In this document: positions 30,570 to 56,862 of the stretch, piece after piece
How the letters are laid out: the number at the start of each line of letters is the position of its first letter
Numbering within the stretch: position 1 is the stretch's first letter
Source: Candidatus Sulfotelmatobacter sp.
GTDB taxonomy: Bacteria > Acidobacteriota > Terriglobia > Terriglobales > Acidobacteriaceae
Direction: 5' to 3'
Length of the DNA: 64,000 nt
NCBI GenBank assembly: GCA_036513255.1
Contig: DATBZH010000037.1
Location: 15,542-79,541 of the forward strand
Translations under genes and position numbers: made by a program
The notes under the pieces: generated by a model
The model's input: the letters and a program-made list of their open reading frames with translations, nothing else
Told to the model about the DNA's origin: nothing
Database searches by the model: none

Positions 30570-30678
30570 TTGTAGAATAATCCCCTGCTCTCGCTTCGAA
30601 AACCAGCCCAGGCGTTGCGTCCAACTTTTGAAACTCGCCTAACCCGTTCAGATTAAACACTTTAGAAGCACCTTGTTG

Positions 30679-30708
30679 TTGACAGGAATCACGCATTCCG
30701 AGTACACT
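30679..30708 (+). promoter_or_regulatory. candidate sigma70-type promoter for the large secreted protein
   Basis: TTGACA (30679-30684), an 18-nt spacer, then TACACT (30703-30708). This would give a leader of about 95 nt before the ATG at 30808. Confidence 0.35.
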
Positions 30709-30807
30709 AAAGGGAGTTTATCCCTACGGGCTTTAGCTAGCCTCCCCTCCCTTAGTAGAAAACTGGGTAGACCCACGGAAACTTCCGTTCGAACCGGAGA
30801 AATCGTA

Positions 30808-33612
30808 ATGGGCACAGCTAGCTCCACTCTGCTACGGGTTTCGGCGTTTTTGCTCCTTGCAGCCGGCTTTTCCGCGCACGCCCAAACCGTCACGACCTTT
30901 GAGGGAATTGACGCTTCGCAATTGTCCAAACCGCTGCTGGACTTTGATCCCAATGGCGCGGTCGGAACCAAGCAGTATATGGAGTGGGTCGATGTTTATT
31001 ACCAGGCCTGGAGCACGACCAGTCCGTTTACCGCGGTTTGGTCCAAGCCGCAAGTTGGCACCACGCCTTTTACAGCCAACGGCCTCACGAATTGCTCCAC
31101 CGTCAATGGCGACGGTATCGTCAACTTCGACCGGCTCGCGTCGCGCTGGATCATTGCCGGCCACAATCAATTAACCTCGACGATAACTAGCTATTACTAC
31201 TGCGTCGCTATTTCCAACACCGACGACCTGACTTCGAGCAATCTTCAGTGGTTCACTTATGCGTTCCCCTTGAATTCCATTCTCGGGACCAATTCCCAGG
31301 GCACTCTGTATTTCCCCGACTGGCCCAAAATCGGTACCTGGTCCGATGCCTACTATGTGGGAATGGACTTTCAAGACACCAATAACGGCTTTCAGGAAGA
31401 TGGCGTAGTCGCCTGTGCGCTGGACCGCTCCGACATGCTGATTGGCGCTACCGCGCTGCCTCCACAGTGCTTTCGCACTCCGACGAGCGGCGGCAGCCTG
31501 TTTACCGCGCACAGTCTTGAGCCGGCCGATGTGGAAGGCACGACCGCGCCGCCGGCGGGCAGTCCCGAATATTTCGTGAGCATCCAGAATCCAGTCATTG
31601 ATGGCGTCACGACCACTTCCGACACATTTAACCTGTGGCAGTTCCATGTGGATTGGTCGAACCCGGCGAACTCCACGTTCACCGAAAGTACCGTCTCTGC
31701 GCCGGTTTACACGCCGGGGTGTTACAACGTCAGGTTTCCTACCAATACGGTTTGCGTTCCTGAGCCTTCGACGGCGAGTACCAACCAGCCCATCGATTCC
31801 GTTGGCGACCGTTTCATGTGGCGCTTGGCTTACCGGAATTTTGGCACTTACCAGTCGTATCTCGCCAGCCACACCGTGCAAGTTGGCACCGGAGCCTTGA
31901 GCCAGACCGGAATCCGCTGGTATGAACTGCGCGGCAACGGCGTGCCCGCCATTTTTCAGTCGGGAACAGTCAGCCCCGATTCGTCACTGTACCGCTTCAT
32001 GCCCAGCATCGCGCAGGACCAGAGTGCGAATGCAGCCGTAGGTTACAGCGTCTCCAGCGCTTCGACGCATCCCGGCATCCGCGCTTCCTATTGGAATCTG
32101 ACGAATCAGACTACGCCCACCGAGCTTTCGCTGTTTAGCGGAGCGGGGGACGAAGAAAATTCTTACAAATGGGGCGACTACACCAGCATGACCGTTGATC
32201 CCGTTGGCGGCTGCGCTTTCTGGTATGTGAACGAATATTTCAACACCAATCAGACAGGCACGGGAAAACCAATCTGGCAGACGCGCATTTCAACGTTCAC
32301 CCTGCCGTCATGCGGAACAGTGACGGTGTCGCCCACGAGTCTGACGTTTGGTTCGCAGGCGGTGGGAACGACGAGCGCGACACAGAACGTCACGCTTACC
32401 AACACCCTCAGCACCGCTTTGACCATCAACAATATTTTTGGCAGCGGGACGAACCTCTCAGATTTTGGGCAGTCGAATGACTGCGGGTCGAGCGTTCCCG
32501 CCGGTGATTCCTGCACCATCGGCATAACCTTCACGCCCACTGGCACGGGCACTCGAACCGCTACTCTGAACATTTCCGATAGCGCCGGCAACAGCCCGCA
32601 AACTGTGGCTCTGACCGGCACGGGAACCAATTCTGCGACCATTAGCCTTTCCACCACCAGCATCAATTTCGGCAATCAGGCTTACGGCACGACGAGTGGA
32701 GCGTCGCAAATCACCGTCAACAATACGGGTGCCTCGACCGTAACTTTTTCGAGCATTGGACTTACGGGAACGAATGCTGCCAGCTTTGGCGAGAGCGACA
32801 ACTGCGTACCCACACTGGCGGCCGGCAAAACCTGCGCCATCAACGTAACTTTCAGTCCTGCAGCGGCAGCCAGCTATAGCGCTGCGGTCACTCTGACTGA
32901 CAATGCCGCCAACAGCCCGCAGAATGTTTCGCTGACGGGAACTGGAATTGTGCCAGTCACTCTTTCGGCGAGCAGCCTGGGCTTTGGCACGGTTCTGGTG
33001 GGCAGCAGCAGCACGGCTTCGCCAGTAACACTGAACAATAAGATGTCGGTGGCGTTGACCGGCATTACAGTGGCCGCGACAGGGACCGGGTTTAGCCAGA
33101 CCAATACTTGCGGCAGCAGCGTCGCCGCCGGAGGACAGTGCAAGATCACGGTCACCTTCACGCCAACCGTCGCCGGCTCTGAAACAGGCGCGGTCACCAT
33201 TACCGACAATGCAGCCAACAGTCCGCAGAAGCTTGCGCTGACGGCTTTCGGCCAACTGCCCGTGAATTTGAATCCAACGGCGTTGGCATTTGGCACGGTC
33301 AAGGTTGGCGCGACCAGCGCCAGCAAGTCCGTGGTCGTGGGCAACAATGAGAAGACTACGCTCACCCTCAGCAGCATCGTTCTGGGCGGAGCGGATCCTG
33401 GCGACTTTTCGCAGACCGGCAACACGTGTGGTGCAACGCTGGCCGCCGGCGCCACGTGCACGCTGACCTACACGTTTGCTCCAGCAAAGATCGGCGCACG
33501 CACCGCTACGGTTACACTTACAGATAGCGCTTTGACTAGCCCGCAAGTTATAAAGCTCAACGGCACGGGCCAGACGGCAACGATCGTCAAGGCCAGACTG
33601 ATAAGGCCCTAA
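30808..33612 (+). CDS. large secreted protein with four C-terminal choice-of-anchor-D (HYDIN/ASH-like Ig) repeats
   Basis: GGAGA lies upstream of the ATG at 30808. The signal peptide is MGTASSTLLRVSAFLLLAAGFSAHAQ. An N-terminal region of about 500 aa has no recognised motif. Four repeats of about 105 aa follow (32317-33573), each with L.FG...VG..S....V.L.N......FS....C...LAAG.SC...V.F.P...G...A.L...D.A..SPQ...L.G.G. Confidence 0.8.
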   Translation: MGTASSTLLRVSAFLLLAAGFSAHAQTVTTFEGIDASQLSKPLLDFDPNGAVGTKQYMEWVDVYYQAWSTTSPFTAVWSKPQVGTTPFTANGLTNCSTVNGDGIVNFDRLASRWIIAGHNQLTSTITSYYYCVAISNTDDLTSSNLQWFTYAFPLNSILGTNSQGTLYFPDWPKIGTWSDAYYVGMDFQDTNNGFQEDGVVACALDRSDMLIGATALPPQCFRTPTSGGSLFTAHSLEPADVEGTTAPPAGSPEYFVSIQNPVIDGVTTTSDTFNLWQFHVDWSNPANSTFTESTVSAPVYTPGCYNVRFPTNTVCVPEPSTASTNQPIDSVGDRFMWRLAYRNFGTYQSYLASHTVQVGTGALSQTGIRWYELRGNGVPAIFQSGTVSPDSSLYRFMPSIAQDQSANAAVGYSVSSASTHPGIRASYWNLTNQTTPTELSLFSGAGDEENSYKWGDYTSMTVDPVGGCAFWYVNEYFNTNQTGTGKPIWQTRISTFTLPSCGTVTVSPTSLTFGSQAVGTTSATQNVTLTNTLSTALTINNIFGSGTNLSDFGQSNDCGSSVPAGDSCTIGITFTPTGTGTRTATLNISDSAGNSPQTVALTGTGTNSATISLSTTSINFGNQAYGTTSGASQITVNNTGASTVTFSSIGLTGTNAASFGESDNCVPTLAAGKTCAINVTFSPAAAASYSAAVTLTDNAANSPQNVSLTGTGIVPVTLSASSLGFGTVLVGSSSTASPVTLNNKMSVALTGITVAATGTGFSQTNTCGSSVAAGGQCKITVTFTPTVAGSETGAVTITDNAANSPQKLALTAFGQLPVNLNPTALAFGTVKVGATSASKSVVVGNNEKTTLTLSSIVLGGADPGDFSQTGNTCGATLAAGATCTLTYTFAPAKIGARTATVTLTDSALTSPQVIKLNGTGQTATIVKARLIRP

Positions 33613-49450: not shown

Positions 49451-49473
49451 GGTAATAATATACTTGACTGACT
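49451..49473. repeat. terminal inverted repeat, left
   Basis: GGTAATAATATACTTGACTGACT is the exact reverse complement of 52180-52202. Confidence 0.9.
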
Positions 49474-49538
49474 GGAGATGATAATGGAAACTGAAAAGGC
49501 CGTGACAGGGCAGGCTGAGGACCGCGAAGAGCGGATTC

Positions 49539-49826
49539 TTAATTTGATTTACCGGGCGGGAGAGGGTCTGTTAAAAGGGCTTCAAACCCCGCTAGTTTTC
49601 CCGCCTCCAGAAGGTTCGCCCGCATTTGAGCATACGCTTCGCGAGATCGTCTCTGACGTTCAGGATCGGCTTGTGCATCGTCCGAAATCCGCTTTATCTG
49701 TTGCGGAGTAAACCCAGCCTTGAACAGAGTTTCGCCGAATGCGTCTCTGTCTATCCACATGCGCTCTAACTGATCGGCGATCTTGCTTAGGAGAACAGCA
49801 ACGGCCTGTAGCGAAGGCGACGACAT
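49539..49826 (-). CDS. cargo gene 3: small helical hypothetical protein
   Basis: 95 aa from MSSPSLQAVAVLLSKIADQLERMW. The start lies 11 nt after the stop of the 2-TM gene. A +strand ORF (49484-49711) overlaps it and cannot be excluded. Confidence 0.45.
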   Translation of the reverse strand: MSSPSLQAVAVLLSKIADQLERMWIDRDAFGETLFKAGFTPQQIKRISDDAQADPERQRRSREAYAQMRANLLEAGKLAGFEALLTDPLPPGKSN

Positions 49827-49837
49827 AGCGCCGCGAA

Positions 49838-50050
49838 TTATACGCCGTTGCGGAGCGCGGAAAACAATCTCCACGCGACAAAAGCAAATAGAAGCCACAA
49901 AAAACCTACAAACAGATCGAAGCCTGTAGCTTGGTTATTGACGGGAGAAATGAAACCCAAGGTACCGTGGAGCACGGTTGGTAGCCACAATATAAGCACA
50001 AGCAAAAATCCAGCAATGGCTCGGCCTCTACTTTTCGATTCTTTAGGCAT
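49838..50050 (-). CDS. cargo gene 2: small 2-TM membrane protein
   Basis: 70 aa with two hydrophobic helices (AIAGFLLVLILWLPTVL; LFVGFLWLLFAFVAWRLF). The start lies 6 nt after the DUF3800-like stop. Confidence 0.55.
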   Translation of the reverse strand: MPKESKSRGRAIAGFLLVLILWLPTVLHGTLGFISPVNNQATGFDLFVGFLWLLFAFVAWRLFSALRNGV

Positions 50051-50056
50051 AATGGC

Positions 50057-50869
50057 TCAAAGTTCCCCCGCTTTTTCGAGATAATCCAGCATCTCATGCA
50101 CGTTCTTTAATTCTGGTATTTCCCCGTCGTCAGCTTCCTCTTTTTGGCTTGCGAACTGTTCGCATCTCTTTCGAGTCCAGATTGAGCCGAGAGTTCGCAC
50201 ATGGTCTAAATCCTGGAATTGTTCCTTCGGCAAATCTGGGCGGAACGGCTCCTTGCTCATTCGCTCCGCGAATAATCGCCTGATATACCACGATTGGGCA
50301 TCCGCAGCTTGGAGCGGCAGGAATTGCAGGTCATCCTCAAACTTCGGCGAGGGCGCTATAAGGTGCCTGAGTTCCGGCGGCAGCATCTTATGGGTCAGTT
50401 GATACCAGCGCGGAACCTTCGCCGCCAGTCGCGGGTTATTGTCGAAGATAAAGTCCACGGTGTCTTCCGATTTTAGTGCGATCTGATTCCATAGAATCTT
50501 CATCACGATGTCGAAGAGGGCGAGGAAGTACGGATCGTCAAACTCACGGTGGACTTTGCCTTTGATGTGCGCCTTGTAGAGATCAATAGGCACCACGGAA
50601 ACCACGGAGGCGTGAGCGGCCATCCGAATCAGTGAGAAGAATTTCTTGATGCGCTCATTTCGGGCAGTCGCCTTCATTCCGCCGAACTGCTCGCTGCGGG
50701 TCGCCGCTTCGCGCATTTTGAAATATTTGAGCGACGGAGGTTCGTCGAGCAAACCTTGCCAATGGTCGGAAAAATCCTCCCACCAATCTAGGCGGCTAAC
50801 GTAGCCGGATAATACGAAGACGGGCTTCCCGGTGCCACTGTCATCGACAAAGGCTTGGAACGTGGTCAC
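50057..50869 (-). CDS. cargo gene 1: DUF3800-like protein
   Basis: FQAFVDDSGTGKPVFVLSGYV near the N-terminus resembles the DUF3800 D-x-S-G start motif. The GTG at 50869 follows GAGGA. The ORF-track ATG at 51001 would add about 45 aa and overlap the divergent small ORF. Confidence 0.6.
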   Translation of the reverse strand: MTTFQAFVDDSGTGKPVFVLSGYVSRLDWWEDFSDHWQGLLDEPPSLKYFKMREAATRSEQFGGMKATARNERIKKFFSLIRMAAHASVVSVVPIDLYKAHIKGKVHREFDDPYFLALFDIVMKILWNQIALKSEDTVDFIFDNNPRLAAKVPRWYQLTHKMLPPELRHLIAPSPKFEDDLQFLPLQAADAQSWYIRRLFAERMSKEPFRPDLPKEQFQDLDHVRTLGSIWTRKRCEQFASQKEEADDGEIPELKNVHEMLDYLEKAGEL

Positions 50870-50985
50870 CCTGCGCGATCCTCTCTTGTGCTGAGGAAGA
50901 CCAGAAACCAGCGCTCGCAGTCTCTCGCTGGGAGTTTGACTTTCGACGCACACTGCGACTACCCTGCTTTCTAGGTAGCCCCAGA

Positions 50986-51174
50986 GTGAGCCAGAAGCCA
51001 ACGCGCCCGACGCAATCCGCCAAGAATGTCACAGGCGATTTTGGCAAGTTCACGGATTTTATGCGGAAACTTGTAGCCGTTCCGCATTCGGAAATCAAAG
51101 CTAAACTCGACGCCGAAAAACTGGAGAAGAAGCGGAAACGCGCTTCTTCCCGCGCTTCCCACGGTAAGGATTAG
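50986..51174 (+). CDS. small basic hypothetical protein inside the element
   Basis: 62 aa with a Lys-rich C-terminus (KAKLDAEKLEKKRKRASSR). It converges on the transposase stop. Weak call. Confidence 0.35.
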   Translation: MSQKPTRPTQSAKNVTGDFGKFTDFMRKLVAVPHSEIKAKLDAEKLEKKRKRASSRASHGKD

Positions 51175-52154
51175 AACGGCGTTTCACCCACCTTGCCAGT
51201 TACCTCAGCGAAGGTTAACCGCTTCCCTACAATCTGCGATAAGACTAGGCCGAATCGTTCTGCATCGGTCAGTTTGCGTCCGTTTTCATCCTTGCGGTTA
51301 TTGTAGCGGAACATTTGCTCATCCAAGTAACGCGAGAGATGGAACGGCTCTACAGCAACGTAGGTTCCATTCAATCCACGCTTGAGCAGGCTCCAGAAGT
51401 TCTCCAGTCCGTTTGTGTGGACTCGCCCGCGAACGTATTCCTTGGTGTGGTTCACAATCTCATGCACGTAGTTTTTCTGGCCTAGAGTCCGGTACGCTCC
51501 AGCTTCATCGGTGTAGACGTTGGAATCTTCCGCCACATGCTTGAGCACTTGGGCCTGTAGTGTGGCGCGGGAAGTGTTCGGCACAATGGCAGTCCGCACC
51601 TTACGCTGTTCGCGGTCAAGGAAACCCATCACGATAGTCTTGCTGGCGTTCGGGTCGCCGCCTTCCTTGGTCATCTTGACTCGCTTCCGCATGTGCATAT
51701 TTTTCATCTTCCCGCCGATGTATGCCTCATCGACTTCGACTTCGCTGTTCTCGCCGCCGCCGAACTTCTGGAAAGAGCCTGTCTGCATTGCGAGTCTGAT
51801 TCGGTGCATCATGAACCAAGCGGACTTCTGAGTTACGCCCAGAGCGCGGTGAATCTCGTAAGACGAAATCCCATTTCGGCAGCTTGCCAGCAACCAAGTA
51901 GCAGGAAGCCATTTCTCCAGCGGGATCGGCGAGTCCTCAAACACGGTGCCAATCTTGAGTGAGAACTTTTGCTTGGGGTGCTTTTCGTAGCAGCGATAGA
52001 GCCGCGCTTTCTCAAGGTAGGTTACCTTTTCGGATTCGCAGTAAGGGCAGCGAACTTTGCCATCTGCCCAGCGCACGGCGATCATGAATTGACGGCAGTT
52101 CTCATACACCGCAAAGAACTTAATGGCGTCTTGGAGTGTCTGTGGGCCTTTCAT
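51171..52154 (-). CDS. IS1595 family (ISXO2-like) DDE transposase
   Basis: 327 aa. The N-terminal zinc ribbon is CPYCESEKVTYLEKARLYRC. The HTH region is GISSYEIHRALGVTQKSAWFMMHRIR. The catalytic candidates are VEVDEAYIGG, VYTDEAGAY and NGLENFWSLLKR. Confidence 0.9.
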   Translation of the reverse strand: MKGPQTLQDAIKFFAVYENCRQFMIAVRWADGKVRCPYCESEKVTYLEKARLYRCYEKHPKQKFSLKIGTVFEDSPIPLEKWLPATWLLASCRNGISSYEIHRALGVTQKSAWFMMHRIRLAMQTGSFQKFGGGENSEVEVDEAYIGGKMKNMHMRKRVKMTKEGGDPNASKTIVMGFLDREQRKVRTAIVPNTSRATLQAQVLKHVAEDSNVYTDEAGAYRTLGQKNYVHEIVNHTKEYVRGRVHTNGLENFWSLLKRGLNGTYVAVEPFHLSRYLDEQMFRYNNRKDENGRKLTDAERFGLVLSQIVGKRLTFAEVTGKVGETPF

Positions 52155-52160
52155 GCACCC

Positions 52161-52189
52161 ACATTAGCAAAATATCGTTAGTCAGTCAA
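52161..52189 (-). promoter_or_regulatory. candidate transposase promoter partly inside the right inverted repeat
   Basis: On the minus strand: TTGACT (52189-52184), a 17-nt spacer, then TAATGT (52166-52161). Only 6 nt separate the -10 from the A of the transposase ATG, which suggests a leaderless or near-leaderless mRNA. Confidence 0.45.
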
Positions 52190-52202
52190 GTATATTATTA
52201 CC
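52180..52202. repeat. terminal inverted repeat, right
   Basis: AGTCAGTCAAGTATATTATTACC is the exact reverse complement of 49451-49473. Confidence 0.9.
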
Positions 52203-52210: not shown

Positions 52211-52381
52211 CGATTGACTGGGAGTTTAGACGTTCCCGGTATTCCATCTCTGGGACGAATAACTCCCGTCGATAAGTTCGAGGCGACGATGCCGTACTCA
52301 CGGTTGCCGCAGGAACTACGGCCATACATTTATAATCTTCCATTCAGCTATCCATCACATTCCTCACGGTAAGGAAATATT

Positions 52382-54943
52382 TTGCTCGATTATCTAGGCG
52401 ATTTAAGACGGACTCACATGTGCGGAGCCTTACGCGCTGCTGATGCTGGCAAGAAAACAGTGCTCATGGGCTGGGTCAACCGCCGCCGTGACCACGGCAA
52501 TCTTCTCTTTATCGACCTCCGTGACCGCACGGGACTGACCCAGGTCGTCATCAATGCCGAGCGCGATGCTGCCATCCACGAAAAAGCCGGAAGTCTGCGC
52601 AACGAATACGTGATTGCCGTAATCGGCACGGTGAAACTGCGCGAGGCGAACACGGTCAACCCGAACATGCCCACTGGTGAAGTGGAACTGGTCGCCGAAG
52701 AGTTGCGTATTCTCAACGAATCCAAACTGCCCCCATTCCTGCCCTCGGATACGGCGCTTACCAACGAGGAGACGCGGCTTAAATATCGCTATATCGATCT
52801 GCGCCGCGACGTGATGCAGTTCAACATCGAGACGCGCCACAAAGTCGCGAAAGCAATCCGCGACTATCTTTCCGCGCAGGGATTCTTCGAAATCGAAACG
52901 CCTTTCATGACGCGCTCTACGCCGGAAGGCGCGCGTGACTATCTCGTGCCCAGCCGCGTTCAGCCTGGCACGTTTTACGCGCTGCCGCAGTCGCCGCAGT
53001 TGTTCAAGCAAATTTTGATGATCTCGGGGTTCGACAAATACTTCCAGATTGTCCGCTGCTTCCGCGACGAAGATTTGCGCGCCGACCGCCAACCCGAATT
53101 CACCCAGATCGATTTGGAAATGACGTATCCGCAGCCCGAACGTGTGTGGGAAGTAGTCGAAGGATTTCTAACGGCGGCCTTCGCCGCCGCCGGCTCTGTG
53201 ATCGAGACACCTTTCCCGCGCATGGATTATGACGAAGCAATCCGCCTTTACGGTATCGACAAGCCGGATCTCCGTCTTTCCGCCTTCACCGACGTGCGCG
53301 AATGTTTTGCTCCGGAAAATTTGCAGCAGTTGGCCGTGAATGCGAACTTGCCGGTGGTGGCCATTCGCATTCCGAAAGTCGGTGAGCTTTCCCGCGCCGA
53401 GCGCGACAGCATCAAGCCGCTGTTCATTTCCAAGGGCGGAGCCAAGATATTCGAAGACTTCAAGCGAATCGAAAAGAATTTCTCCGAAGCCGCCGCGAAA
53501 ATTTCTGCGAAGGTCGGGAGTGAGCCCGGAGATCTGATTGTGATTGTCGCAGGCTCGGCGCAAACCGGCGAACGGACGGCGCTCCCGGCGAATCGCAAAG
53601 TCAGTCCGCAGGAACTCTCAATCTACGCTTCGGCCGGATTGCTGCGCCTTGCTCTGGCACAGAAATATGCCGACAAGCATGGCATGTTCAAAAAGTCGGG
53701 CGACCCGCAAAAAGATTTCCGTTTCGTCTGGGTCACCAACTTCCCCATGTTCGAGTGGGATGAAGGCGAAAAGAGCTGGATGGCCGCTCATCATCCTTTT
53801 ACCTCGCCGCATGAAGAAGACATGACTTTGCTGGAAACGGGAGTTGACTCCGTTAACGACCGGCAATCGTCGCTGAGTGCGGTGCGCGCGCTGGCCTACG
53901 ACGTTGTGCTGAACGGCACGGAGCTCGGTTCAGGCTCCATCCGTATTCACCGCCAGGACGTGCAGAGCCGAATCTTCCGCGCACTGGGCATGACCGACGA
54001 AGAAGCCCGCTCTCGGTTCGGATTTTTTCTGGAAGCGCTGGAATACGGCACGCCTCCACATGGAGGCATCGCGCTGGGGCTGGACCGCATCGTCATGATC
54101 CTGACCGGAGCTGAGAGCCTGCGCGAAGTCATTCCGTTCCCCAAAACAGCTCGCGCCGTAGATTTGATGGTCGATGCGCCTAGCGATATTGGAATTGGCC
54201 AGGGTGATGAGTTAGAACTGCTCTCAGCTTGGCCAAGATTGTCCGAGCGCGAGAGGGCACTGGCAGGGTATTGCCAGAGCCTGTTGAAAATTGTAGACAG
54301 TCTCTTCTTCGATCGCCCCCTTAAATGGGAGACACACTTCCAGCAGGCGATGGCAATAAATCTCACAAAGGCGTACAACGATGCCCATGCTGCTGTGCAG
54401 CTTTCGAAAGCTGGATATGCCTTGCAGGCCGCTGCACTGTGCCGATCTATCGTGGAAGCAGCCGCCAATAGCGAATGGATTGCAGCGGAGCCTGAAGCCC
54501 GGGCGACGGCGTTTCTGAGGTCCGTTGGCCCCGAGGCGAAACGGTTGGCCGGCAAGATTCATCGGTCTGCACAGTCGAGAGAATCCCTCAATGCTTTGGA
54601 AAGAGCAAGCTCTCTCGCGGCAGATGCTGGATGGCCGAAGACAGTTCGGGAGCGTTTTCAGGGTTTAGGGGAGAACGCTGCTACATATGAGCTCGTTTTC
54701 AGTATGTTGTCGCAATTTGTACACCCCACGGCAGCCTCGGTAGCAGCGGTTACCAGATACGACGGCGGCGAACTAAGTTTCCGTATCGGTCCCAACGACG
54801 AATTCGTCGAGCTTGCGTTGGCAATAGTTTTCGACTTCCTGTCGAATGTCGTGCTCACCGCAACCAAAGCCTTCGACCTGCCCCAAGGGGCCGTCCTAGA
54901 TGCTCGGAATGGCTTTCAAAAATTGCAGGCAGCCCTTAAATAA
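52382..54943 (+). CDS. aspS: aspartate--tRNA ligase with an appended non-synthetase C-terminal domain of about 250 aa
   Basis: The start is TTG, after AAGGAAA. Residues 1 to about 602 are a complete bacterial-type AspRS: OB fold, motif 1/2/3 regions (FRDEDLRADRQPEFTQID, GSGSIRIH, GGIALGLDR) and the PFPKT...APS end. The ORF then runs on without a stop for another 251 codons. Confidence 0.9.
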   Translation: MLDYLGDLRRTHMCGALRAADAGKKTVLMGWVNRRRDHGNLLFIDLRDRTGLTQVVINAERDAAIHEKAGSLRNEYVIAVIGTVKLREANTVNPNMPTGEVELVAEELRILNESKLPPFLPSDTALTNEETRLKYRYIDLRRDVMQFNIETRHKVAKAIRDYLSAQGFFEIETPFMTRSTPEGARDYLVPSRVQPGTFYALPQSPQLFKQILMISGFDKYFQIVRCFRDEDLRADRQPEFTQIDLEMTYPQPERVWEVVEGFLTAAFAAAGSVIETPFPRMDYDEAIRLYGIDKPDLRLSAFTDVRECFAPENLQQLAVNANLPVVAIRIPKVGELSRAERDSIKPLFISKGGAKIFEDFKRIEKNFSEAAAKISAKVGSEPGDLIVIVAGSAQTGERTALPANRKVSPQELSIYASAGLLRLALAQKYADKHGMFKKSGDPQKDFRFVWVTNFPMFEWDEGEKSWMAAHHPFTSPHEEDMTLLETGVDSVNDRQSSLSAVRALAYDVVLNGTELGSGSIRIHRQDVQSRIFRALGMTDEEARSRFGFFLEALEYGTPPHGGIALGLDRIVMILTGAESLREVIPFPKTARAVDLMVDAPSDIGIGQGDELELLSAWPRLSERERALAGYCQSLLKIVDSLFFDRPLKWETHFQQAMAINLTKAYNDAHAAVQLSKAGYALQAAALCRSIVEAAANSEWIAAEPEARATAFLRSVGPEAKRLAGKIHRSAQSRESLNALERASSLAADAGWPKTVRERFQGLGENAATYELVFSMLSQFVHPTAASVAAVTRYDGGELSFRIGPNDEFVELALAIVFDFLSNVVLTATKAFDLPQGAVLDARNGFQKLQAALK

Positions 54944-54984: not shown

Positions 54985-56862
54985 ATGAACATTCTCGATC
55001 TGGTCGTCGGCAAACCTATCAGAACTAGCGACGAACGGGCCGAGCAGATCGGCCCGACGCAAGGTGTTCCGATCTTTGGCCTCGATGGCCTGAGTTCGGC
55101 CGCCTACGGACCGGAAGCCGCGCTTAGCCTTCTGCTTCCGCTGGGCCTTCTGGGCGTTCGTTATATCGTTCCCATCAGCGCGGCGATTATCACGTTATTG
55201 GTGATAGTGTATTTCTCTTATCGCCAGACCATCGCCGCGTATCCTTCGGGCGGCGGCTCGTATACGGTGGCGCGGTTTAATTTAGGAGCGCCAGCCGGTT
55301 TGCTGGCCGCCGCGGCGCTGCTGGCCGACTATATTCTGACCGCGGCTGTGGGGATTTCCGCGGGCGTGGGGGCGCTGGTTTCAGCCGTTCCGTCGCTGCT
55401 GCCGCACACGGTTTCCTTGTGCGTGGGAATTCTGATCGTTATTACGATTCTCAACCTGCGTGGAGTGCGGGAAGCTGGCACCGTGTTCGCGATTCCGACT
55501 TACTTGTTTGTGGGCACGCTGCTCATAACTATTCTTGCGGGGGTTGCGCGGGTGCTGATGAGTGGAGGGCATCCGACTCCGGCATTTGCGTTGCCGCCTC
55601 CGCCGCCGGTAACGGAGGCAGTTGGCTACTGGCTGCTGCTCAAGGTGTTTGCCAGCGGCTGCACGGCTCTGACGGGTGTAGAGGCGGTGAGCAACGGCGT
55701 GAAGGCGTTCAAGGAGCCAACCGTCAAGAACGCACAGCGCACGCTCACCGTAATTATTTTCTTGCTGGCGGTGCTGCTGGCGGGAATCTCTTATCTGGTG
55801 AAGGTGTACGGAATCGCAGCCACCGATCCGGGTAAACCGGGCTATCAGAGCGTGCTTTCGATGCTGACGGCTTCCGTTTTCGGCAAAGGATTTTTTTACT
55901 ATCTTACGATCGGCTCGATTCTGGTAGTGCTGTCTCTCTCGGCCAACACTGCATTTGCCGATTTTCCGCGGCTATGCCGTGCGATCGCCAGCAATAATTA
56001 CCTGCCCCATGCCTTTGGATACCGCGGACGGCGTCTAGTTTATACCTATGGGATTGTCGTGTTGGCGGTGCTATGCGGCGGGGTGCTCATCGCGTTCGGC
56101 GGCGTGACCGACAGACTGATTCCGCTTTATGCGGTGGGCGCGTTTCTGGCCTTTACGCTTTCGCAAGCTGGGATGGTGGTGCACTGGACGAGGAAGCGCG
56201 GGCCGCATTGGTTGAAGAGCGCGATGGTGAATGGCTTGGGCGCTTTCGTTACCGGCATTACGACGCTGGTTGTATTGGTCGCGAAGTTTGTGGAAGGCGC
56301 GTGGATTACGCTTCTGTTTATTCCCGCGACGATTCTTCTGTTTGCGCTGGTACGGCGGCACTATCACTTTGTGACAATGGAAACCGCGTGCAATGAAGCG
56401 GTCAACACAGAGACGCTGGCCCAACCTCCCATTGTGGTGATTGCGTTTGACCGCTGGAGCAAGATCACGTGCCAGGGAATTCAATTTGCCGCGCGCCTTT
56501 CGCCGGAGGTCATAGCGGTACATGTCGAGCCCAGCGAGCATTCCCCAAGGCTCGAAGACGAGTGGGAACGCTACGTGGTGAAAGCTTTCCGGGCAGCAGG
56601 CAAAGAGCCGCCCACGCTGCACATGCTGCCTTCGCCGTATCGCTTTGTCATTATTCCGTTCGTGCAATACGTTCTCGATCTGTCGAAACAATTTCCCAAG
56701 CGGAGCATCGTCGTCGTGATACCGGAATTGGTAGAAGACAAGTGGTATGAATATTTTCTGCATAATCAGCGGGGAAGAATGTTGGAGTGGGTGCTGATGG
56801 CGCGGGGGAATGAACGCATTTTTACGGTGAGCGCGCCTTGGTATATCGGTCACGGACGGTGA
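54985..56862 (+). CDS. APC superfamily permease with C-terminal cytoplasmic domain
   Basis: 625 aa. About 12 TM helices (GLDGLSSAAYGPEAAL start motif) are followed by a soluble tail of about 170 aa. Confidence 0.7.
   Translation: MNILDLVVGKPIRTSDERAEQIGPTQGVPIFGLDGLSSAAYGPEAALSLLLPLGLLGVRYIVPISAAIITLLVIVYFSYRQTIAAYPSGGGSYTVARFNLGAPAGLLAAAALLADYILTAAVGISAGVGALVSAVPSLLPHTVSLCVGILIVITILNLRGVREAGTVFAIPTYLFVGTLLITILAGVARVLMSGGHPTPAFALPPPPPVTEAVGYWLLLKVFASGCTALTGVEAVSNGVKAFKEPTVKNAQRTLTVIIFLLAVLLAGISYLVKVYGIAATDPGKPGYQSVLSMLTASVFGKGFFYYLTIGSILVVLSLSANTAFADFPRLCRAIASNNYLPHAFGYRGRRLVYTYGIVVLAVLCGGVLIAFGGVTDRLIPLYAVGAFLAFTLSQAGMVVHWTRKRGPHWLKSAMVNGLGAFVTGITTLVVLVAKFVEGAWITLLFIPATILLFALVRRHYHFVTMETACNEAVNTETLAQPPIVVIAFDRWSKITCQGIQFAARLSPEVIAVHVEPSEHSPRLEDEWERYVVKAFRAAGKEPPTLHMLPSPYRFVIIPFVQYVLDLSKQFPKRSIVVVIPELVEDKWYEYFLHNQRGRMLEWVLMARGNERIFTVSAPWYIGHGR

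Follow-up and report, generated by a model that had tools for sequence, protein, structure and literature searches.

The stretch analyzed here (the window) is a 64,000-nucleotide section of contig DATBZH010000037.1 from the assembly GCA_036513255.1 of a Candidatus Sulfotelmatobacter sp. The element under study is its aspS gene, encoding aspartyl-tRNA synthetase (AspRS), which runs on in frame into a complete DUF5677 module (Pfam PF18928). The original prediction, made from the DNA letters and their open reading frames (ORFs), had described a synthetase of 853 amino acids (aa) continuing without a stop into an extension of about 250 aa at 54191-54943. Both the ORF itself and the recurrence of its junction in about three dozen assemblies bear this out, and the coordinates were correct within one codon, with the module proper beginning at about residue 616 (54227). 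No second copy of aspS or of DUF5677 was found within the window. The features of the gene and of its immediate upstream region are as follows:

52331..52375, plus strand: putative aspS expression signals (-10-like TATAAT at 52331-52336, Shine-Dalgarno-like TAAGGA at 52370-52375)
52382..54943, plus strand: aspS::DUF5677 fusion ORF (TTG start, 853 codons and a stop, no internal stop)
52463..52714, plus strand: AspRS N-terminal OB-fold anticodon-binding domain, residues 28-111 (Pfam PF01336, 58.7 bits)
52763..54148, plus strand: class II catalytic core including a putative bacterial insertion domain, residues 128-589 (PF00152, 389.9 bits)
54188..54235, plus strand: retained native AspRS C-terminal tail and conserved junction, residues 603-618, IGIGQGDELELLSAWP, corresponding to ...PVGEKQLRELGI... 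of plain AspRS
54227..54940, plus strand: complete DUF5677 module, residues 616-853, equivalent to a whole stand-alone protein; hypervariable and probably an exchangeable cassette (from Pfam, homologues, fold and allele comparisons)
54359..54745, plus strand: match to the Pfam DUF5677 model, residues 660-788
54407..54478, plus strand: most conserved block of the module, residues 676-699 (G678, Y679, R688, S689, E692, N696), with the lowest entropy (0.72-0.76 bits)
54632..54637, plus strand: conserved W751-P752 (family alignment; W nearly invariant family-wide)
54686..54724, plus strand: second conserved block, Y769 ... L776, S777 ... H781 (family alignment; H781 nearly invariant family-wide)

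The AspRS core and the appended DUF5677 module

Judged by its sequence, the synthetase part is a bacterial-type aspartate--tRNA ligase and is predicted to carry out aspartylation. The NCBIfam aspS equivalog model NF001750 matched the protein with 717.5 bits (cut-off 443 bits) over residues 9-613, corresponding to profile positions 4-584 of 590, and because this match is nearly full-length the AspRS can be regarded as complete by about residue 613. The TIGR00459 model also scored above its cut-off (628 bits against 373.85 bits), and the FRDED and GGIALGLDR motifs were present in the translation. The Pfam GAD model for the bacterial insertion domain gave a weak match to residues 320-395 (E 0.18), a region through which the NF001750 alignment runs. 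Plain relatives, that is AspRS proteins lacking the module, stop 17-20 residues past the DAP motif (...DAPTPVGEKQLRELGIQVKK*), and the window protein has 253 residues beyond this motif. TAAGGA and TATAATCTT were invariant upstream of plain and fused aspS in an alignment of four upstream regions; the TATAAT and TAAGGA elements are candidate expression signals of the gene.

The module abuts the native AspRS tail with no linker between the two. The junction motif, QE[ED][EQ]LE[LI][LM]xA[WFY]PxL, is kept in 36 other fused sequences, shows no indel among the closest relatives and is conserved even across allele classes of the module that are only 35% identical. Type A fusions, which include that of the window, have Leu (CTC) at the junction (window 54209-54235; the others were compared at L018-L037), and fusions outside type A mostly have Met (...QEEELELM(S/A)A(W/F/Y)P...), following GAG-rich, Shine-Dalgarno-like codons. 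This combination of a Met with Shine-Dalgarno-like codons suggests that a free DUF5677 protein might be made by internal initiation in some lineages, although the feature is not conserved.

The extension matched PF18928 with 44.9 bits in the whole protein and with 48.0-48.2 bits when searched alone, above the gathering cut-off of 27.1 bits, so that the DUF5677-type assignment made by eye in the original prediction proved right. The same model matched 90 of the 91 aligned relatives of the extension, and NCBIfam models gave no match to the extension. An AlphaFold2 model computed from the 91-sequence alignment (pLDDT 94.6, pTM 0.89) comprised about 10 helices and one small beta-hairpin, a predicted fold that is essentially all-helical, as had been anticipated. 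The alignment to stand-alone DUF5677 proteins spans the extension from its first helix through to its end. Across the 91 family members, a L, G, A, R, W and H were near-invariant, with R688, W751 and H781 of the window among them, and within the fused clade about 30 positions were at least 95% conserved, clustering in residues 676-699 and 769-781. Variation was concentrated in residues 640-651, 724-747 and 784-807 and in the C-terminal helix.

The module is acidic, with a pI of 5.3-6.3, and a basic RNA-binding character was rejected on this ground. GC content at third codon positions (GC3) fell from 0.678 in the AspRS part to 0.562 in the extension, in line with the weaker bias that had been estimated by eye; with an average of 0.659 and a standard deviation (sd) of 0.033 over 30 long ORFs of the window, the GC3 of the extension is about 2.9 sd low. 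A fold search of the extension model against PDB and the predicted viral structures of BFVD returned no match with E < 0.1 (best PDB E-value 0.19), and a profile search of PDB sequences with the extension family gave nothing meaningful. The fold match of highest probability was AbiV (9bj7; probability 0.41, TM 0.28/0.38, E 0.7), and one family member matched Csm6 HEPN with an E-value of 0.028. The HEPN Rx4-6H motif is missing from the window protein, which reads MLSQFVH with Met at the Arg position, and was seen only in the stand-alone protein P0024 (WRLSQIAH). A relationship to HEPN or AbiV was rejected since the motif is missing and the fold match is not significant.

Distribution of the fusion and history of the locus

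That the gene is a real and conserved fusion, anciently fixed and lineage-wide, can be regarded as virtually certain. The same in-frame junction was found in about three dozen independent assemblies (JGI, ENA and NCBI), and an identical protein is encoded on the 206-kb ENA metagenome scaffold WILH17-1 scaffold_7, where the gene is called with Pfam tRNA_anti-codon, tRNA-synt_2 and DUF5677. The extension has its three closest homologues, at 58-72% identity, in three other assemblies, and each of them passes in frame from AspRS into the extension. A whole-protein search returned nine full-length fused relatives of 828-859 aa, and the Terriglobales metagenome-assembled genome L006 encodes an 834-aa fusion between hisS and rho. 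In a profile search of 1.84 billion representatives, 14 clusters were recovered at E ≤ 1e-30, nearly all with AspRS C-terminal residues before the module; below these ranked numerous stand-alone DUF5677 proteins, about 250-270 aa long. AspRS was the sole aminoacyl-tRNA synthetase (aaRS) partner among those top profile hits that had extra N-terminal sequence. A metagenome scan yielded 22 loci, five of which were cut by contig ends; all 17 with enough upstream DNA contained one stop-bounded fused ORF of 828-972 codons. The split form, with aspS ending in a stop and DUF5677 as a gene of its own behind it, was present in none of these 17 informative loci, nor was it found among about 20 other fused sequences. 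The AspRS cores of some fused relatives are only about 53% identical, and the fused lineages that carry a taxon name are Acidobacteriota (Terriglobia). The fusion is maintained across deeply diverged soil lineages.

P0005 and P0014 were considered as stand-alone split forms and rejected, the contig of P0014 beginning inside the junction, and P0006 and P0007, considered as short forms, were rejected as frameshift fragments in indel-rich assemblies. In L011 and L012 (ENA ERZ25039537 and ERZ25039529), the housekeeping genes hisS, aspS, mutL, lon and tig are fragmented, which marks both as indel-rich long-read assemblies and their short AspRS-DUF5677 proteins as artefactual.

The suggestion that the extension might be of foreign origin did not hold as far as a recent acquisition peculiar to the window genome is concerned, the architecture being old, as seen in its occurrence in about three dozen assemblies with cores down to about 53% identity. 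The original prediction had also named, as a refuting case, relatives that commonly share the long aspS with homology to a known AspRS accessory domain. A long aspS is indeed common among relatives, but none of the known AspRS accessory domains corresponds to the appended one. The domain combination is already visible in precomputed Pfam annotations of database proteins; no paper describing the AspRS-DUF5677 architecture was found, and papers mentioning DUF5677 do so only in passing.

The nearest AspRS cores to that of the window (88-93% identical) belong to plain proteins of 605-624 aa, of which the named ones are from Candidatus Sulfotelmatobacter (Acidobacteriota, Terriglobia, Terriglobales). 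These plain proteins share the upstream synteny and the promoter-like elements of the window gene but end in ...GEKQLRELGIQVKK*, without the 238-aa module. The upstream order hexapep-hisS-PNPOx-DUF4440-DUF1579-aspS is common to the plain locus L007, the type-B fused locus L010 and the window, and in part to the type-A fused locus L009; DUF4440-DUF1579-(230 aa)-aspS is common to the window and its plain relatives. More distant lineages have hisS-aspS::DUF5677-mutL-cmk(-rho), with hisS-aspS in L006, L010 and L018-L037, and hisS-aspS-mutL-cmk is the most frequent order at fused loci. Because the gene order is common to plain and fused loci, the fused gene can be taken as the canonical aspS. At these loci, hisS was called at 540 aa in plain-AspRS relatives (L007 5695-7317, L008 1424-3046) versus 426 aa in L006 and L010; the 540-aa call may represent an N-terminal extension or a mis-called start.

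In a neighbor-joining tree, built on a sample of plain sequences biased towards the closest hits, plain forms nested among fused lineages. This suggests that the module was lost in some lineages, for example from the plain AspRS of Ca. Sulfotelmatobacter. No core residues telling fused from plain AspRS were found; with plain cores that are 88-93% identical and no core residue tracking the extension, the module is probably dispensable for tRNA charging. Along the window gene itself, similarity is to plain alleles over the 5' 100 codons (86% identity versus 70-75% to the fused L009), and to type-A fused alleles over the last 45 or so core codons and the extension. A permease follows aspS after 41 nt in the window. 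Among the Sulfotelmatobacter-like relatives the downstream gene differs in every case, being an amino-acid permease, an aminotransferase, an amidohydrolase, cmk or mutL (positions compared: window 54985-56862, L007 11863, L009 12568, L010 12944 and L002 1126). As synteny is kept upstream and differs downstream, the 3' end of aspS appears to be a rearrangement boundary in the Sulfotelmatobacter-like group.

Variation in the module and neighboring elements

A point absent from the original prediction is that the extension has very probably been exchanged as a cassette between lineages. Core and extension identities were correlated with a Spearman coefficient of 0.47 over 231 pairs, and the core and extension trees were discordant. 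Specifically, the window protein shared 86% identity in the core and 37% in the extension with P0128, and 73% and 74%, respectively, with P0127; the corresponding values were 95% and 43% for L029 with L030, and 90% and 44% for L018 with L021. The extension of the L018 class shared 60% identity with that of L019 (core 70%) but only 44% with that of L021 (core 90%). In sliding-window comparisons of DNA identity, L018 and L021 gave 75-89% in the aspS core, 46-58% in the extension and 72-87% in mutL, and L030 and L029 gave 87-95% in the core and 51-64% in the extension, with recovery at the stop; the control pair L031 and L033 showed about 80% in the core, about 70% in the extension and about 82% after the stop. 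In a three-segment test covering eight loci, core and MutL were correlated with a Spearman coefficient of 0.50, and the extension with either flank with coefficients of 0.15 and 0.07. The allele classes of the module are 35-47% identical and cut across the flank phylogeny. In the mechanism proposed, recombination would swap deeply diverged allele classes of the module between lineages, so that the module would not co-evolve with the enzyme; the breakpoints would lie at the junction and at the stop codon, and homology arms would presumably be supplied by the downstream gene and by the conserved 3' end of aspS.

Between L029 and L030, the proportions of nonsynonymous and synonymous differences (pN and pS) were 0.029 and 0.38 in the core and 0.42 and 0.80 in the extension. 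Because pS jumps alongside pN, replacement by a deeply diverged allele is favored over positive selection in situ, which was disfavored as the source of the hypervariability since synonymous sites also rise to saturation. Two considerations temper the case for exchange. The pS of the extension exceeds that of the core even within an allele class, so that part of the synonymous excess reflects weaker codon bias and not older coalescence, and metagenome chimeras could account for some of the discordance between core and extension, chimerism being unlikely for the tested pairs because both flanks agree in similarity. GC3 was lower in the extension than in the core in all 16 fused genes compared, with a mean difference of 0.19.

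Within an allele class, the module is under purifying selection. Between the window and L009, the extension had a pN of 0.118 with pS saturated at about 0.75, and the core a pN of 0.092; L010 and L006 gave a dN/dS of 0.077 for the extension, and pN/pS was about 0.15. The low pN relative to pS and the low dN/dS argue that the module is translated and constrained.

Two further features of the window lie within an element upstream of aspS:

49451-52202: intact IS1595-family element, 2752 bp, with perfect 23-bp terminal inverted repeats GGTAATAATATACTTGACTGACT and an 8-bp target duplication ATTTTTCG
50057-51001, minus strand: IS1595 passenger ORF encoding a 314-aa DUF3800-like protein (Pfam E 4e-4)
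51171-52154, minus strand: IS1595 transposase

The original prediction had pointed to this element as flanking the gene. It is indeed present upstream, but no link to the extension was found, and relatives without IS1595 carry the same fusion. The element sits 179 bp upstream of aspS and did not displace TATAAT or TAAGGA; the intergenic region that holds it spans only about 257 bp in the plain relative L007. It is a separate, recent insertion without relation to the 3' extension. Elsewhere in the window, a 979-aa ORF at 30673-33612 on the plus strand has an odd codon-position GC compared with the other window genes (GC1 0.485, GC2 0.56, GC3 0.674).

These data bear on two further explanations. 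A recent foreign insertion of the extension tied to IS1595 could appeal to the intact element 179 bp away and to the low GC3 of the extension; it is refuted, and is given next to no probability, as the element, located 5' of the gene, has inverted repeats and a target duplication of its own at its ends, IS-free relatives have the fusion, and the junction is common to lineages with cores about 53% identical. Just as improbable is an artefact, be it a hidden stop or frameshift or a functionless read-through tail. The window does come from a single metagenome assembly and some related assemblies (L011 and L012) are frameshift-rich, but a missed stop or frameshift at the junction was rejected given the same in-frame junction in some three dozen independent assemblies, and the pN/pS of about 0.15, the high-confidence predicted fold and the Pfam match above cut-off also stand against this reading, which is effectively refuted.

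Possible roles of the module

The view that DUF5677 proteins otherwise stand alone in accessory regions was upheld by the genes of about 250-270 aa and by their defense-island contexts. The two nearest stand-alone relatives with readable contigs both lie in defense islands, the one in L013 among R-HinP1I, MmeI/Eco57I-type and DraIII restriction genes, and the one in L015 adjoining mCpol/Cap15-like, KAP NTPase-QatB-TatD and nSTAND3 genes, with an integrase nearby. In L015 (5264-8233) and L016 (1381-4350), DUF5677 follows 23 nt after a 142-aa ORF, which is itself 13 nt after a GmrSD_N-only gene. Such tight spacing points to an operon of three genes, with DUF5677 as a possible component of a type IV restriction-like system. 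HTH_17 or SEC-C N-termini occur in other members of the family, and some distant members gave weak matches to PADLOC candidate models (PDC-S52, DitA, PDC-S12 and PDC-S47). In a 2025 preprint (PMC12632615), DUF5677 was significantly enriched beside defense-island serine recombinases. The window module resembles the stand-alone proteins in its match to the PF18928 model, in covering their full span of about 240-270 aa and in its near-invariant R, W and H, but these occur in defense or mobile regions or with HTH_17 or SEC-C N-termini, whereas the window module is fused to an essential aaRS at a housekeeping locus. To our knowledge, DUF5677 has no known link to translation.

Several known systems share part of this organization. 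The AspRS-GatC family (NF009460 / PRK12820) is also a bacterial AspRS with a module appended at its C-terminus, GatC being a known partner in Asn-tRNA synthesis. The window protein, however, scored only 514.2 bits against the cut-off of 1379, with only the AspRS segments aligning, and a GatC-type fusion was rejected on this score and because the appended module is not GatC-like. Appended domains on bacterial aaRSs are rare and are usually fixed, co-evolving accessories. Those of the Trbp111/EMAPII, WHEP and GST-like types occur mostly in eukaryotes, are in many cases basic and RNA-binding or else complex-forming, and evolve together with the enzyme; the DUF5677 module is likewise a non-catalytic domain on a complete synthetase but is acidic, bacterial and exchangeable. 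Polymorphic toxins such as CdiA-CT and Rhs-CT have C-terminal modules that are replaced by recombination at a conserved junction motif, and the window family likewise has a variable C-terminal module swapped at a conserved junction. It differs from them in having no secretion-related N-terminus and in its carrier, a cytoplasmic essential enzyme. In hisS-aspS-mutL loci, the start of mutL coincides with the fusion stop or lies within about 100 nt of it, and since the position at or directly after the stop is taken by mutL or another housekeeping gene, no immunity gene follows the fusion. In fused defense proteins of the CapRel-SJ46 type, a tRNA-acting enzyme bears a C-terminal sensor domain that is hypervariable and differs sharply among close relatives, which would be expected of an arms-race recognition surface; the N-terminal part of CapRel is a toxin and not an essential synthetase, and the likeness is an analogy of logic only, with no sequence or fold relationship to the window protein.

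The explanation that we put first, tentatively and at somewhat less than an even chance of being correct in full, is an old and real fusion with cassette exchange, in which AspRS carries a conflict-related recognition module. Taken by itself, a conflict-related, AspRS-coupled function of the module is possible but doubtful. It is suggested by the stand-alone relatives in defense islands together with the allele turnover and the low GC3, cassette-like allele turnover with low GC3 being typical of genes in genetic conflict. The physical coupling is suggested to matter by the fact that the two parts were never found split, by the linker-less conserved junction and by the exclusive partnership with AspRS. 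As purifying selection and the invariant R, W and H are kept, the module would retain whatever activity the stand-alone DUF5677 proteins have. On this reading it would most likely act as a recognition domain (sensor or guard) held on the AspRS dimer, linking AspRS or tRNA-Asp to some foreign factor that varies, for instance a protein of a phage or competitor, and would then either protect tRNA-Asp charging or shut it down; to aminoacylation itself it probably does not contribute. A bolder version, which we consider quite unlikely, sees the essential aaRS as a chassis for a hypervariable innate-immunity or guard module recognizing a phage or competitor factor. Recognition would in that case switch off tRNA-Asp charging (abortive translational arrest) or shield AspRS and tRNA-Asp from the invader, and frequency-dependent selection would maintain the allele classes and their exchange.

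A number of observations count against a conflict-related role. Only two stand-alone genomic contexts lie behind the defense-island observation. PADLOC-DB 2.0 models matched neither the extension nor the whole protein, nor any of its ten nearest stand-alone relatives, and PHROGs likewise gave nothing for the extension and its nearest stand-alone relatives. Searches by tblastn yielded no match, either in plasmids and phages (queries: the extension, P0030 and P0093) or in viral contigs (queries: P0024 and P0026). In the preprint cited above, a DUF5677 ORF from a lactic acid bacterium was not among the five ORFs protecting against six phages (PMC12632615). Finally, long-term retention in a housekeeping gene would fit a housekeeping role as well.

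This last point leads to the reading of the module as a housekeeping accessory that aids tRNA binding or discrimination, scaffolds the GatCAB Asn-transamidosome, or serves in allosteric regulation or localization. The very long retention inside an essential gene at its canonical locus, the purifying selection on the module and the precedent of a C-terminal AspRS fusion in the AspRS-GatC family NF009460 all favor it. We nevertheless judge it unlikely: the acidic module (pI 5.3-6.3) differs from the basic appendages that typically bind tRNA, resembles neither GatC nor any tRNA-binding or editing family, and is dispensable in close relatives, its homologues stand alone in defense islands or join HTH_17 or SEC-C and not translation genes, and replacement by alleles of only 35-47% identity in backgrounds with cores of 90-95% identity is hard to square with a co-adapted part. 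A little less improbable, though still a minority view, is an independent passenger, namely a DUF5677 gene once located between aspS and mutL that was fused by loss of the aspS stop, the two halves doing unrelated jobs. The fusion would then give only constitutive co-expression, and the hypervariability would be the DUF5677 module's own biology. This agrees with an extension that is a whole stand-alone DUF5677 protein from the first helix on, with the lack of any core residue co-varying with its presence, and with module loss that leaves the core without visible change and swaps that are independent of the core. It does not readily account for the absence of the split form from 17 informative loci and about 20 other fused sequences despite core divergence to about 53% identity, for a linker-free junction kept across classes that are 35% identical, or for AspRS being the sole aaRS partner among the top profile hits with extra N-terminal sequence.

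The unusual property of this fusion is that an appended aaRS domain is hypervariable and exchangeable. Its turnover is like that of the variable part of a conflict system, and it takes place on an essential synthetase of abundant soil bacteria in which the enzyme and mutL stay conserved. If the module is coupled to AspRS, this would represent a new wiring of translation to defense or competition. The fusion would also provide the first tractable handle on DUF5677, with a defined partner and the invariant residues R688, E692, W751 and H781, and with natural allele classes and natural loss variants available for comparison. Even if the two halves act independently, the locus would offer a clean natural case of cassette exchange that uses a housekeeping gene as its recombination anchor.

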